Source: Patescibacteria group bacterium
GTDB taxonomy: Bacteria > Patescibacteriota > Minisyncoccia > Minisyncoccales > DG-74-3
NCBI GenBank assembly: GCA_043818355.1
Contig: JBDRFX010000008.1
Location: forward strand, 1-56,761
Direction of reading: 5' to 3'
DNA: 56,761 nucleotides
Shown: positions 29,881 to 33,997 of the stretch, in pieces
Numbering within the stretch: the stretch's first letter is position 1
Layout: each line of letters begins with the position of its first letter
Program-made: the position numbers and the translations under genes
The notes under the pieces: generated by a model
The model's input: the letters and a program-made list of their open reading frames with translations, nothing else
What the model was told of the DNA's origin: nothing
The model's database searches: none

Positions 29881-30573
29881 ATGAAAAAACAAAAAGCTAT
29901 TATGGTCATTGGTTCTCCAGGAGCTGGAAAGGGAACACAAGTTAATTTGTTGTCAGAAAAATTAGGTTTTTATCATTTTAAAACTAGCGCTATAGTGGGA
30001 AGAATTATTGAAGAAGCAGATCCAGGTTCTTTTGTAGAAATTGAAGGTGATAAGTATTATTTTGAAGAGCAGAAGAAATTAAGAGCAGATGGCAAACTAT
30101 GGGACGATGCTTTTGTTACTTATTTTACCAATGAAAAGGTTAAAGAGCTTCATGGGGAGGGTAAAAACATTATTTTTGATGGTTATCCTAGAACCCTATA
30201 TGAAGCAAAACATACAATCCCTATTTTAAAAGATTTATATGGGAAGGATAATGTTGAATTTTTATATATTGAAATTTCAGAGGAAGAGGCTATTTTTAGA
30301 AATACTCACAGGCGTGAATGTGAATTAATGCGCCACCCTGTATTGTATTCTGAAGAAAACTCTAAATTAACTAAATGCCAAATAGATGGTTCAGATTTAG
30401 TAGAAAGGAAAGATGATGATTCAGAAATTATTAAGGTTAGATTGAGAGAATTTAGAGAAAAAACTATGCCCATTCTGAGCGTTGTTGAAGAAGAAAATAT
30501 CAAGATTCATAATATCAATGGTTCTCCTGCTCCAGTTAAGGTTTTTAAGAATGTCCTAAAAGCAATTGAATGA
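29881..30573 (+). CDS. adk: Adenylate kinase (operon-canonical copy; LID without a full Cys4 set)
   Basis: GSPGAGKGTQ, FDGYPRT; position between secY and map. Confidence 0.9.
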   Translation: MKKQKAIMVIGSPGAGKGTQVNLLSEKLGFYHFKTSAIVGRIIEEADPGSFVEIEGDKYYFEEQKKLRADGKLWDDAFVTYFTNEKVKELHGEGKNIIFDGYPRTLYEAKHTIPILKDLYGKDNVEFLYIEISEEEAIFRNTHRRECELMRHPVLYSEENSKLTKCQIDGSDLVERKDDDSEIIKVRLREFREKTMPILSVVEEENIKIHNINGSPAPVKVFKNVLKAIE

Positions 30574-31310
30574 TTCCAATCAAATCAGAAAAAGAAATTG
30601 AGATAATGGCTGAGAACGGAAAAATTTTATCTTCTATTTTAAAAGAGATAAGAGAAAAGGCTGTTATGGGTATTGAAACACAAGAACTAAATAAGATTGC
30701 TGAAGTCCTTATTTCTCAATATGGAACGCCTTCCTTTAAAGGATATGATAATTTTCCTGCCGGTCTTTGTGTTTCTATAAACGAAGAAATAGTTCATGGG
30801 ACTCCCTCTAAGAGAAAGCTTAAAGAAGGAGACATTGTTTCGCTTGATATTGGTCTTTATAGAAATGAATTTCATGTAGATATGGCCACCACTTTTGCCA
30901 TAGGAAGTATTCCACCAGAAGCTCAGAAATTAATTCAAGTTGGAAAAAAATCATTGAAAAGAGGCATTAAGAAGATTAAAGTGGGGAATACTTTTGGAGA
31001 CATTGGAAATACCATTCAGAGATATGTTGAAGATCAGGGTTTTGCGGTAGTGAGAGATTTATGTGGTCATGGGATAGGAAGAAATCTTCACGAGGATCCT
31101 CAAATTTTGAATTATGGAAAAAGACATAAGGGAATGGAAATTCAAGAGGGCATGGTTTTTTGTTTAGAGCCAATGGTTACAGCAGGTAGTTATGAGATTG
31201 AACTTACTAAAGATGGGTCTGGATATAAGACAATAGACAATTCTTTATCGGTTCATTTTGAGCACACTATAGCTGTTACTAAGAATGGGGTTAAGATATT
31301 AACAGAATAA
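30570..31310 (+). CDS. map: Type I methionine aminopeptidase
   Basis: VHG.P, D.G, CGHGIG, and the LEPM...HFEHT metal ligands. Confidence 0.94.
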   Translation: MIPIKSEKEIEIMAENGKILSSILKEIREKAVMGIETQELNKIAEVLISQYGTPSFKGYDNFPAGLCVSINEEIVHGTPSKRKLKEGDIVSLDIGLYRNEFHVDMATTFAIGSIPPEAQKLIQVGKKSLKRGIKKIKVGNTFGDIGNTIQRYVEDQGFAVVRDLCGHGIGRNLHEDPQILNYGKRHKGMEIQEGMVFCLEPMVTAGSYEIELTKDGSGYKTIDNSLSVHFEHTIAVTKNGVKILTE

Positions 31311-31344
31311 AAAGTTCATTAGTTGTTGCTTATTAATTTTGATT

Positions 31345-31373
31345 GGTAGAGAGAAATCTCTGCCAGTTTTGTT
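31345..31373 (+). terminator. Terminator-like hairpin inside the repeat: GGTAGAGA-GAAA-TCTCTGCC followed by AGTTTTGTT
   Basis: 8-bp stem (one G-U pair), GNRA loop, T-rich tail, directly downstream of map. Confidence 0.55.
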
Positions 31374-31390
31374 GTGAGAAGAGAAATTTA

Positions 31391-31399
31391 TGTTAAAAT
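31391..31399 (+). promoter_or_regulatory. Extended -10 element TGTTAAAAT inside the repeat
   Basis: TGn plus TAAAAT. A second identical copy lies 23 nt before the GT2 gene. Confidence 0.35.
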
Positions 31400-31410
31400 T
31401 AAAGAATTAC

Positions 31411-31431
31411 CAACGAGACCCGGCCTCGTTG
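31411..31431. repeat. REP-like palindromic hairpin copy 1: CAACGAG-ACCCGGC-CTCGTTG
   Basis: 7-bp arms are exact reverse complements. Lies between the repeat and the likely ATG of the transposase. Confidence 0.9.
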
Positions 31432-31448
31432 ATTTAAATCATAATCAT

Positions 31449-32168
31449 ATGCCTATAAGAAAAGTACAATTTGCTAATGGAGAATTCTATCATATCACTA
31501 AAAGAGGAATTGAAAAAAGAGAAATTTTTTTAGATGATGAAGATTATTTTCGTTTTGTTAATAGTCTATTAATTTTTAATGATAAAATGTCAGCACCTTG
31601 GGCATCTCGTGGTTTCTGGCGTCAACGAGACCCGGCCTCGTTGTGTACGAGTGAATATAAACCAAAAGTTCCAATAGTGGAAATTCATGCATTTGCTTTA
31701 ATGCCAAATCATTTTCATTTATTGGTGCGACAATTAGTTGATAATGGGATTGTTCTTTTTATGCAAAAGCTCGGTGGTTATTCTTATTATTTTAATAAAA
31801 AATATGAACGAGAGGGAACTTTATTTCAGAATAGATATAAAATTAAAAGAGTGAAATCAGAAGAGCAGCTAGAAAATAATTTTGTTTATATTAATACAAA
31901 TCCAATAAGCATAATTGAATCAGGATGGAAAGAGGGGAAAGTAGAAGATGTCAGAAAAACAATTGAATTTTTAGAAAATAAATATCGATGGTCAAGCTAT
32001 TGGGATTATATAGGTAAGAAAAATTTTCCATCAGTGATCACAAAAGATTTTTTTCTAGAATTTTTTGGAGAAGAAGAAAAGATAAGAGAGAAGATAGAGT
32101 CTTGGATTCTTTACAAATTAGAGTCAGAAGCGTCAACGAGACCCGGCCTCGTTGATTTTGAAGATTAA
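31449..32168 (+). CDS. HUH/Y1 transposase of the IS200/RayT (REP-associated tyrosine transposase) type
   Basis: HUH motif in LMPNHFHLLV, FQNRYK, and the catalytic-Tyr region NNFVYINTNP. ATG 31449 (MPIRKVQF...) is preferred; the track's GTG 31374 lies inside the duplicated repeat. Confidence 0.7.
   Translation: MPIRKVQFANGEFYHITKRGIEKREIFLDDEDYFRFVNSLLIFNDKMSAPWASRGFWRQRDPASLCTSEYKPKVPIVEIHAFALMPNHFHLLVRQLVDNGIVLFMQKLGGYSYYFNKKYEREGTLFQNRYKIKRVKSEEQLENNFVYINTNPISIIESGWKEGKVEDVRKTIEFLENKYRWSSYWDYIGKKNFPSVITKDFFLEFFGEEEKIREKIESWILYKLESEASTRPGLVDFED
31623..31643. repeat. REP-like hairpin copy 2, inside the transposase coding sequence (translated as QRDPASL)
   Basis: Same 21-mer as copy 1; shares the 5' flank GCGT with copy 3. 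Confidence 0.9.
32134..32154. repeat. REP-like hairpin copy 3, encoding the last residues of the transposase ORF (TRPGLVD)
   Basis: Same 21-mer; arms extend to 8 bp (TCAACGAG/CTCGTTGA). Confidence 0.9.
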
Positions 32169-32169
32169 A

Positions 32170-32234
32170 TTTGATTGGTAGAGAGAAATCTCTGCCAGTT
32201 TTGTTGTGAGAAGAGAAATTTATGTTAAAATTAA
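32170..32234 (+). repeat. Right copy of the perfect 65-bp direct repeat, again containing the terminator hairpin (32177-32205) and the extended -10 (32223-32231)
   Basis: Identical to 31338..31402. Confidence 0.95.
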
Positions 32235-32253
32235 TAAATAAATTAAAAAACAT

Positions 32254-32982
32254 ATGAGTAAAATTAAACTTTCGGTTGTAATGCCAGCCTATAATGAAGA
32301 AAAAAGACTTCCTAAAACTTTGAAGGAAGTTGATGAATATCTAAAGACTCAAAATTATGATTATGAGATTTTAGTAGTGGACGATGGATCAAAAGACAAT
32401 ACAGTTGAGATTGTAAAATCCCTTCAGTCAGAAATTAAGAATTTAAAAATTATAAGTTATAAAGTAAATAGAGGAAAGGGTTATGCCGTAAGATTTGGAT
32501 TGCTAGAAGCTCAAGGAGAATATAGATTATTGACAGATGCCGATAATTCAACTTCTTTAGACCAGATTGAAAAAATGTGGCCTGAATTTTATAAAGGATT
32601 TGACGTTGTAATTGGTTCAAGAGATGTGGAGGGAGCTGTTTCAGATCCTCCACAGCCCGCATTCAGGGTTTTTACTGGCGACGTTTTTATGTACTTAAGA
32701 AAAATTATTGTTGGGCTTTGGGAAATAGATGACACGCAATGCGGTTTTAAGGCTTTTAGTGCAAAGTGTGTTAAAGAAGTTTTTCCTAAAGGAAAAATAG
32801 ATAGATTTGCTTTTGATCCTGAAATTTTAATTCTAGCTAAAAGAGCTGGTTTCAAGATTAAAGAGGTTCCAATTTATTGGAAGAATGACCTGGATAGTAA
32901 GGTTAAGTTTAAATCAATGGTGAAGATGTTAATTGATTTATTTAAAATTAGATTAAATTTAATTTCTAGAATTTATGAATAA
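32254..32982 (+). CDS. Family 2 glycosyltransferase (polyprenyl-phosphate sugar transferase-like)
   Basis: VVMPAYNEE, DDGSKDNT, TDADNS, QCGFKAF. Confidence 0.88.
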   Translation: MSKIKLSVVMPAYNEEKRLPKTLKEVDEYLKTQNYDYEILVVDDGSKDNTVEIVKSLQSEIKNLKIISYKVNRGKGYAVRFGLLEAQGEYRLLTDADNSTSLDQIEKMWPEFYKGFDVVIGSRDVEGAVSDPPQPAFRVFTGDVFMYLRKIIVGLWEIDDTQCGFKAFSAKCVKEVFPKGKIDRFAFDPEILILAKRAGFKIKEVPIYWKNDLDSKVKFKSMVKMLIDLFKIRLNLISRIYE

Positions 32983-33997
32983 AAATATTTATTCAGAGTT
33001 AAGATACGATTTAATTTCTAAAGATTGGGTTGTTATAGCAACCTCAAAAGGAAAGAAGCCTCAGGGTTTTAAGTTTAAAAAAATGAAGGTAGAAAAGATT
33101 GCTAAAAAAGATTGTCCTTTTTGCAATATTGAAACACAAAGAAAACCAACCTTAATTTATTCTAAAGGAAAACAATATCCATTAGATAGGGGAATTCCAA
33201 AAGACTGGACTACGATTGTTATACCAAATCTTTTTCCAGTCTTTAAGCCATCAGATTCTCTAGATGAAAGTATAGAGGGGGGTTTGTATAAAAAAATGAA
33301 AGCAGTGGGATTTCAAGAGATAATTGTTTCAAAAGATCACGAAAAATCTTTAGCGCAATTGGGAGTTAAGAGAATTAAAGAATTACTTGATGCATATCAG
33401 CAGAGATATCTAGACTTAATGAATGAGAAGCACGTTAATCATATTTCTGTTTTTATGAATTACGGACTAGGTTCAGGAGCCTCTCAACCCCATCCTCATT
33501 CTCAGATTATTACCACTCCATTGATTGATAAGGATTTAAGAATTTCTTTAATGAATGCTCAAAAGTATTATCAAAAAAATAAAGATTGTGTTTATTGCAA
33601 AATGATAAGATGGGAAAAGAAGGCAAAAGAAAGAGTTATTTTTGAAAACCAGGATTTTTTAGCTCTTTGTCCTTTTGCTTCAAAGTCTTCTTTTCAAATT
33701 ATTATTACTCCCAAAAAACACAAATCTAATTTTGAAGACATTACAGAAAAAGAAAAAGAACAGTTAGCAGAAGCCTTTGAAAAGGCTTTGAAGAAGCTAT
33801 ATAAAGGACTTAATAATCCTCCATATAATATTTATTTACATACTGCTCCTTGTGACGGTAAAAAACATGATGATTATCATTGGCACTGGACTATTATACC
33901 AAGACTGTCTATTTGGGCTGGATTTGAGGCAGGAGTAGGAATGGAGATTTCAACAATCTCGCCAGAAGATGCAGCAAAATTCTTGAGAAAACAATAA
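32975..33997 (+). CDS. Galactose-1-phosphate uridylyltransferase-type HIT-superfamily nucleotidyltransferase
   Basis: N-terminal CPFC, active-site HPHSQII, second half-domain with HWHW. Confidence 0.78.
   Translation: MNKNIYSELRYDLISKDWVVIATSKGKKPQGFKFKKMKVEKIAKKDCPFCNIETQRKPTLIYSKGKQYPLDRGIPKDWTTIVIPNLFPVFKPSDSLDESIEGGLYKKMKAVGFQEIIVSKDHEKSLAQLGVKRIKELLDAYQQRYLDLMNEKHVNHISVFMNYGLGSGASQPHPHSQIITTPLIDKDLRISLMNAQKYYQKNKDCVYCKMIRWEKKAKERVIFENQDFLALCPFASKSSFQIIITPKKHKSNFEDITEKEKEQLAEAFEKALKKLYKGLNNPPYNIYLHTAPCDGKKHDDYHWHWTIIPRLSIWAGFEAGVGMEISTISPEDAAKFLRKQ

Follow-up and report, generated by a model that had tools for sequence, protein, structure and literature searches.

Why does a short transposase-like gene carry the same palindrome three times, once in front of its start codon and twice within its own coding sequence? 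The locus lies in a stretch of 56,761 nucleotides from a Patescibacteria group bacterium, which is referred to as a whole as the window. The original prediction described three same-orientation copies of a 21-nt hairpin at a Y1 transposase gene and took them for cognate substrates of the encoded enzyme. Our analysis retrieved all three: CAACGAGACCCGGCCTCGTTG is present as an exact 21-mer at the sites H1, H2 and H3, each on the plus strand (Table 1). Recomputation returned the same 7-bp arms and 7-nt loop, and folding as single-stranded DNA yields -5.9 to -7.1 kcal/mol. The G+C content of the 21-mer is 67%, compared with about 32% for the window. When up to three mismatches were allowed, no further site was found in the 56.7-kb window, either near the gene or far from it; 100 shuffles of the window produced 0 matches, and the chance expectation is likewise 0. 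The 5' flank GCGT, already seen in the prediction, is common to H2 and H3, and the 3' flank ATTT to H1 and H3. GCGT is absent at the homologue loci L108 and L010. Directly 5' of H1 stands the tetranucleotide TTAC. H1 and H2 are spaced by 212 nt, which is not a multiple of three, while H1 and H3 are spaced by 723 nt, which is; H2 and H3 are thus read in different frames, and the readings QRDPASL and TRPGLVD given earlier are correct, the latter followed by FED and the stop. The 21-nt unit contains no stop codon in any of the six frames. No known RNA family was matched within positions 30500-33000. GC skew is positive across the window (1-56761), the gene and the three hairpins are on the plus strand, and this strand is probably the leading strand throughout.

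The longest open reading frame at the locus starts with GTG at 31374 and would translate H1. Since all homologues begin with MP(I/R)RK, the start is placed at the equivalent ATG of the window gene (31449, MPIRK). H1 is consequently part of an untranslated 5' leader, 3' of a 76-nt repeat and before the start codon, as had been proposed. The stop codon (32166-32168) falls inside duplicated host sequence belonging to the right 76-nt copy. The window protein scores 31.7 bits against PF01797 (Y1_Tnp; cut-off 23), in an alignment that covers only profile positions 41-120 because of a loop insertion. Against NCBIfam NF047646 (REP_Tyr_transpos) it reaches 37.9 bits, below the equivalog cut-off of 80. 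The HUH motif is H88-F-H90 (31710-31718), situated in strand b3 of the structural model, and the catalytic tyrosine is Y147 (31887-31889) within YINTNP, situated in helix aD. H88, H90 and Y147 are invariant across 44 homologues. The Y-x-x-x-N-P motif, present as YINTNP in the window protein and as Y..TNP across the homologues, defines the class 2 (RAYT-like) TnpAY1 proteins (PMC6006769). The catalytic core is followed by a C-terminal helical domain with a conserved WSSY motif.

Searched by sequence against the PDB, the family profile gave only weak ISDra2 matches (E 0.03), so that a fold search was required. An AlphaFold2 model was obtained from 44 homologues with a pLDDT of 87 and a pTM of 0.86. 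Its best Foldseek match in the PDB is 4ER8, the E. coli RAYT/TnpAREP bound to its REP hairpin (E 8e-6), with the IS608, ISDra2 and IS200 transposases ranking after it. The top 26 PDB matches are all RAYT, IS608, ISDra2, IS200 or Sulfolobus tokodaii transposases, 19 of them at E <= 0.001. As judged from the model, the gene product is a Y1 HUH protein whose predicted structure is closest to E. coli RAYT/TnpAREP. The H2-encoded residues form a loop between helix aB and strand b2, ahead of the HUH strand (pLDDT 60-68), and the H3-encoded residues lie in the C-terminal tail (pLDDT <50); these two peptides are the lowest-confidence segments of the model. Database relatives of the protein number 2282, and those that are named belong to Parcubacteria or other Patescibacteria.

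Table 1. Features of the Y1 locus in the window and in-frame copies of the 21-mer in other genomes.
Feature	Position	Strand	Remarks
Left 76-nt direct repeat	31332..31407	+	host intergenic terminator and promoter module
H1, upstream palindrome copy	31411..31431	+	left cassette end, 5' leader, 17 nt 5' of ATG
Y1 HUH (RAYT/TnpAREP-like) gene	31449..32168	+	239 aa; PF01797, fold, motifs
H2, internal in-frame copy	31623..31643	+	encodes QRDPASL, residues 61-67
H3, C-terminal tail copy	32134..32154	+	encodes TRPGLVD, residues 230-236; 9 nt from right cassette end
Right 76-nt direct repeat	32164..32239	+	terminator 32173-32200, promoter-like 32204-32231
21-mer in lepA	L002 2393, L015 1334		same site, two different MAGs
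21-mer in gatB	L025 3792		
21-mer in ileS	L022 478		
21-mer in grpE	L021 7380		
21-mer in frame, further housekeeping-gene entries	L024 3068; L006 4897; L011 1480		

Outside the window, the 21-mer was searched for in a species-representative genome collection. Its exact sequence occurs in 27 stretches, all of them from Patescibacteria (Saccharibacteria, Paceibacterota and Staskawiczbacteria), and one MAG holds it on at least 12 contigs. Two of the 27 stretches contain a Y1 gene and 25 do not. Neither gene fragments nor H1-H2 or H2-H3 sub-elements were found near the dispersed copies, and the 21-mer was absent from viral contigs. At least ten dispersed copies reside inside long open frames, where they are mostly read as TRPGLV or QRDPASL; copies in non-coding DNA also occur, and the contexts vary. 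NCBIfam confirms lepA, gatB, ileS and grpE as in-frame hosts (Table 1). It is common for a dispersed copy to lie within a larger inverted repeat (gcaaattgtca-H-...-tgacattttgc) or in a cluster with partial and variant copies, as in the MAG H51-bin038_1 (L014 1853, L016 66, L017 786, L020 3438) and at L008 6784 and L009 2390, which suggests composite units resembling REPINs or BIMEs. Assemblies made independently also break at these repeats: the MAG contigs L007 (1-21) and L023 (2-22) end in the 21-mer, and the Logan contig L118 (1-58), which has an identical glycosyltransferase, starts inside the right 76-nt copy.

To place the arrangement within its protein family, we fetched 80 metagenomic loci (homologues 35-67% identical), additional loci for the homologues P0016 and P0002, and two genome loci. 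Perfect palindromes were recorded for 85 homologous gene copies. In the window and in most of these copies, a palindrome particular to the lineage directly adjoins the gene on its upstream side, its downstream side or both. The same palindrome stands upstream and downstream in 25 of the 85, upstream, internally and downstream in 8, upstream and internally in 7, and internally and downstream in 4. Among the homologues, mostly 2-65 nt separate the end of the upstream hairpin from the start codon; sometimes this hairpin overlaps the ATG, and the downstream hairpin often overlaps the stop codon. Hairpin sequences are identical within a locus and unrelated between lineages (CAACGAG.., TCTGGAAGT.., GAAAGAGGC.., TATTGGTTT.., TCGGGACGT.., ATCAAGGC.., CGTGAAGGT.. 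and others). The layout of gene plus hairpin is a trait of the family, and the hairpins are specific to each lineage. The proposal that the hairpin is cognate to the Y1 enzyme gains from this pattern, as palindromes particular to each lineage flank or enter the genes across the 85 copies; at the level of sequence, such a pairing points to a probable enzyme-substrate relationship. Canonical REP tags (GTAG, GTGG, CGTC) were considered and dropped, as they are not enriched among the hairpins; GTAG or GTGG occurs near the hairpin foot in 6 of 200 instances.

Two side observations concern the neighborhood of the homologues. Tandem Y1 paralogues are found in L096 (1981-2643 and 3421-4092) and L103 (12-647 and 1518-2189), and a separate palindrome family flanks each of them (CCCTAGGC[CTC] and GAGCTAGG[ACCGA] are examples). 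P0016 (L108-L115), a 65%-identical homologue, occupies one fixed site in a type IV pilus cluster in at least eight samples, with a pilin gene on one side and the gene for the prepilin peptidase on the other; of its four hairpin copies, the two upstream ones enclose an extended -10 promoter.

The internal copy is likewise a recurrent feature. In a relaxed search, the internal and flanking copies of about 26 loci differ by four mismatches at most, and in codon-shuffled controls the best match never had fewer than five mismatches. About a third of the homologues carry an internal copy, and about two thirds are without a recognisable one. At 22 or more other loci, the internal copies lie at q85-94 (264-aa numbering), the position of H2. 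The exceptions are at q120 (L049), at q215/216 (L064, L074) and in the C-terminal tail, all of them loops in the model. A flank-independent census along 86 genes placed 22 of 79 palindromes (stem >=7) at q80-99, over a background of 0-5 per ten residues, except for 7 at q50-59. These 7 of the 79 are A+T-rich palindromes in the region encoding ..R.IF.DD.D.. and are unrelated to the flanking hairpins. The internal site is occupied by at least 12 unrelated hairpin families and in all major clades. Copies in the tail or overlapping the stop codon are seen in the homologues L010, L057, L062, L086, L090 and L108. Comparing N- and C-terminal identity over 7140 pairs revealed no outlier above 3.3 sd that would indicate module swapping at H2.

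Comparison of H2 between lineages separates conservation of the DNA from that of the peptide. All 21 of the 21 bases of H2 are identical between the window and L010, a locus of a Saccharibacteria MAG with 54% protein identity (tblastn), and between the window and L108, with 66%. No synonymous variation exists in these bases among the three. The remaining coding DNA is 64-74% identical in the same comparisons, and its third positions 52-63%. In other clades, the same site encodes unrelated peptides (NLEVGLPD, IERGFASFI, TSGRTTSRR, TIQGLALDK and others), each of which is the translation of the palindrome flanking its own locus. The earlier statement that the structure is conserved rather than the peptide agrees with these figures. 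As a sign of ordinary coding conservation, the original prediction had named a 21-mer absent elsewhere in the genome together with the same peptides in other DNA; what we found is the 21-mer in 27 CPR stretches, and peptides that differ. That QRDPASL and TRPGLVD are functional peptides, with the palindrome merely incidental, is hardly credible. Close homologues do keep a Q-R-x-P-x-x-L peptide at the internal site, but H2 and H3 are read in different frames, the 21-mer is untranslated at H1 and in non-coding DNA elsewhere, both peptides fall in low-confidence segments of the model, and neither the unrelated peptides of other lineages nor the invariance of the 21 bases, set against the divergent third positions around them, is accommodated. 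Peptide conservation was rejected as a cause on these grounds.

The way in which the copies within a locus are kept alike is best seen in L116. This locus has two copies upstream, one internal and one downstream, and the same changes, by which two stem pairs are lost, are found in all four. Copies would therefore be kept alike by copying, through gene conversion or replacement, and not by selection for pairing alone. A compensatory S-to-T change with a synonymous Arg change, considered for the QRNPATL homologues, was abandoned, as in the L116 DNA the stem pairs are broken in every one of the four copies; the idea that selection for pairing alone caused the concerted change was given up as well. 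In the QRxPxxL clade, the central residue of the internal peptide is always Pro, so the orientation of the internal copy is fixed. The flanking copies, unlike this internal copy, flip orientation. A fixed orientation fits with vertical inheritance of the internal copy, as far as can be read from the sequences. In some lineages just a decayed peptide trace is left; at L059 it reads QGVSL, and the flanking hairpin there has meanwhile become a different one.

The surroundings of the gene indicate how it came to its present position. The cassette extends from about 31408 to 32163 (~756 nt) and is enclosed by two copies of a host terminator-promoter module, the 76-nt repeats, which are 96% identical. 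In the left copy, a terminator-like hairpin at 31341-31368 (GGTAGAGAgaaaTCTCTGCC) is followed by a T-run. A promoter-like site (TTGTGA-16-TAAAAT with a TG extension), at 31372-31399 in the left copy, is present in both copies. The left promoter-like site probably drives the Y1 gene; H1 sits ~12 nt 3' of its -10 element. The right copy provides a terminator for the Y1 gene and restores the promoter of the glycosyltransferase gene (start 32254). A syntenic relative (L119/L120) lacks a Y1 gene and has the order adk-map-glycosyltransferase, with a spacer of 99 nt. Its glycosyltransferase is 81% identical to that of the window, and its map-glycosyltransferase spacer aligns with the 76-nt repeat, containing the module once (L119 1837-1937; L120 1359-1459). 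Because this relative is without the gene, the hairpin-bounded cassette is regarded as an insertion. A non-hairpin flanking duplication was found in none of the other homologue loci and is particular to the window. To our knowledge, transposition by Y1 HUH enzymes (peel-and-paste) makes no target duplication, and the 76-nt duplication is therefore unexplained by the known Y1 mechanism. A tandem duplication from which one cassette was then precisely excised could possibly have produced it.

An insertion of this form might also be an autonomous element of the IS200/IS605 type, with H1 and H3 as the left and right ends and H2 as an alternative end giving shorter excision products. We consider this quite improbable. 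With IS608 and ISDra2, the ~756-nt unit shares its small size, a single tnpA-like gene, subterminal hairpins in the same orientation, the Y1 HUH fold and an insertion polymorphism, seen here as the empty site of the syntenic relative. A further shared trait is the TTAC 5' of the left hairpin; in IS608, the left junction has TTAC 5' of its hairpin. The tyrosine motif, however, is the Y-x-x-x-N-P of class 2, RAYT-like proteins and not the Y-x-x-x-Q of IS200, and the closest structure is a RAYT. The hairpin is dispersed independently of the gene, as in 25 of the 27 stretches, and no H1-H2 or H2-H3 sub-element occurs elsewhere. The window holds one gene copy, and the fixed pilus context of P0016 across its samples is single-copy behavior. 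Moreover, a 76-nt target duplication flanking the insertion is foreign to IS200/IS605.

We therefore return to the reading of the three 21-mers as cognate REP-like hairpins, against which the main rival is autoregulation. Here, H2 would be a selected cis-regulatory or self-recognition site at which the enzyme binds its own gene, either the mRNA or the DNA made single-stranded in replication or transcription, and represses or limits its expression, and H1, at the 5' end of the mRNA, would occlude translation initiation in the manner of the IS200 stem-loop. We judge this unlikely, but it has several observations on its side: internal copies from at least 12 unrelated hairpin families, spread over all major clades, occupy one and the same loop, the internal copy tracks the flanking hairpin sequence, H2 is identical at 21 of 21 bases between proteins of 54-66% identity, its orientation is fixed in the QRxPxxL clade, and the upstream hairpin, mostly 2-65 nt 5' of the ATG, directly follows, in the window, L108 and L116, a -10 element of the extended type. 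On the other hand, the two thirds of the homologues without an internal copy retain intact genes and flanking hairpins, and some of them have just a decayed trace, such as that in L059. The 21-mer also stands in frame in unrelated housekeeping genes, which indicates that residence in coding sequence needs no special function. A role of H2 as an attenuator, put forward in the original prediction as one regulatory possibility, has no sequence support, since no T-run follows H2 on its 3' side. An attenuator or terminator at H2 was dropped for this reason; in the terminator scan, matches were confined to the 76-nt repeat, apart from a weak minus-strand one at H1. The positional recurrence and persistence of the internal copy would fit a selected function as well; a copy that is simply tolerated requires none.

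Taken to its full extent, the same line of thought would give a RAYT-like enzyme, in the aB-b2 hairpin, a conserved site of self-recognition for acting on its own gene, a proposal that we regard as doubtful. Action on its own gene would then mean auto-repression or templated renewal of the recognition sequence. The CPR palindromes would be coding-compatible mini-elements of seven codons, stop-free in six frames. REP-like spread would have adapted to genomes nearly free of intergenic DNA by way of loops in lepA, gatB, ileS and grpE, and the 76-nt duplication would represent an insertion route undescribed for Y1 enzymes.

Preferring the account of cognate REP-like hairpins, we compared the locus with known systems. 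REPtrons, in which a RAYT gene is flanked by its own REPs, are well known. The present family shares with them (E. coli YafM/RayT, 4ER8; class 2 TnpAY1, PMC6006769) the Y1 HUH core with its Y-x-x-x-N-P motif, the best structural match, a flanking lineage-specific palindrome, here also dispersed in other CPR genomes, tandem paralogues each with its own palindrome (L096, L103) and, in P0016, a single fixed context. It differs in that the palindromes are perfect or near-perfect and have no GT[AG]G foot, in that the protein of 239 aa has an extra C-terminal helical domain and scores below the NCBIfam RAYT cut-off, and in that the host is of the CPR/Patescibacteria type. In the literature searched, we found no description of REP/RAYT in CPR/Patescibacteria.

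The original prediction had further held that REP elements usually lie outside coding sequence. This does not apply generally: intragenic REPs are documented for the GTAG/CGTC REPs (Di Nocera et al. 2013, PMC3733652), and REPs inserted in frame in their own tnpAREP are described for subclass 2.4 in Cyanobacteria and Bacteroidetes (Quentin et al. 2018, PMC6006769). As in subclass 2.4, a cognate palindrome lies inside its own gene with the frame intact (here at H2 and H3, and at about 26 loci besides), in a peripheral loop and read as tolerated. The position differs, as the recurrent site of the present family precedes the HuH motif (aB-b2 loop, q85-94) and is accompanied by the C-terminal tail; only L049 (q120) has a 2.4-like position. 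The window protein, of 239 aa, furthermore has FQ instead of WQ, and YINTNP. Compared with the cases of Quentin et al. 2018, one site persists across the whole family. The motifs NHFH, FQ, YI[NH]TNP and the WSSY tail, together with a length of ~238 aa, are similar to those of subclass 2.1 TnpAY1 proteins, a resemblance of motifs alone; no REPs were found for subclass 2.1 (Quentin et al. 2018, PMC6006769). Short palindromic repeats standing in frame in housekeeping genes also recall the Rickettsia RPEs and the intragenic REPs of Di Nocera et al. (PMC3733652), but here the unit is 21 nt (7 codons), lacks a CGTC or GTAG tag and is linked to a Y1 gene that itself carries the element. The arrangement is a variant of the known REP/RAYT layout and not a separate system.

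In our view, the three 21-mers are likely to be cognate REP-like hairpins of the Y1 enzyme encoded between them, forming a compact REPtron-like cassette with hairpin ends. The central claim of the original prediction, cognate hairpins within the gene of their own enzyme, thus appears well founded on comparative evidence from sequence. By analogy with the solved mechanisms of E. coli RAYT and of IS608 and ISDra2, we postulate that the hairpins extrude on single-stranded DNA and that the enzyme binds them, cuts and rejoins nearby. Such cutting and rejoining would spread hairpin copies around the genome. H2 and H3 would be in-frame copies in two disordered protein segments, where a 21-nt unit adds seven tolerated residues. 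The internal site would be old and inherited, its copy staying like the flanking ones by local gene conversion or by enzyme-mediated replacement. From its place beside the start codon, at the mRNA 5' end, H1 might either limit expression or stabilise it, and H2 might be bound by the enzyme. The most likely account of the locus, with autoregulation as its main rival, is thus a REPtron-like cassette holding in-frame, inherited and homogenised copies in two disordered loops.

The function of RAYTs and the spread of REPs are still unsettled, and this family offers a minimal version of both, with a 21-nt palindrome and a 239-aa enzyme. A built-in substrate copy that tracks the flanking copies through changes of the hairpin provides a handle on the co-evolution of enzyme and hairpin. 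If the internal copy is only tolerated, the finding would add a further phylum and a further position to what Quentin et al. 2018 described. For the organisms themselves, it means that streamlined CPR genomes carry REP-like repeats inside essential coding sequences, which matters for their annotation and assembly.
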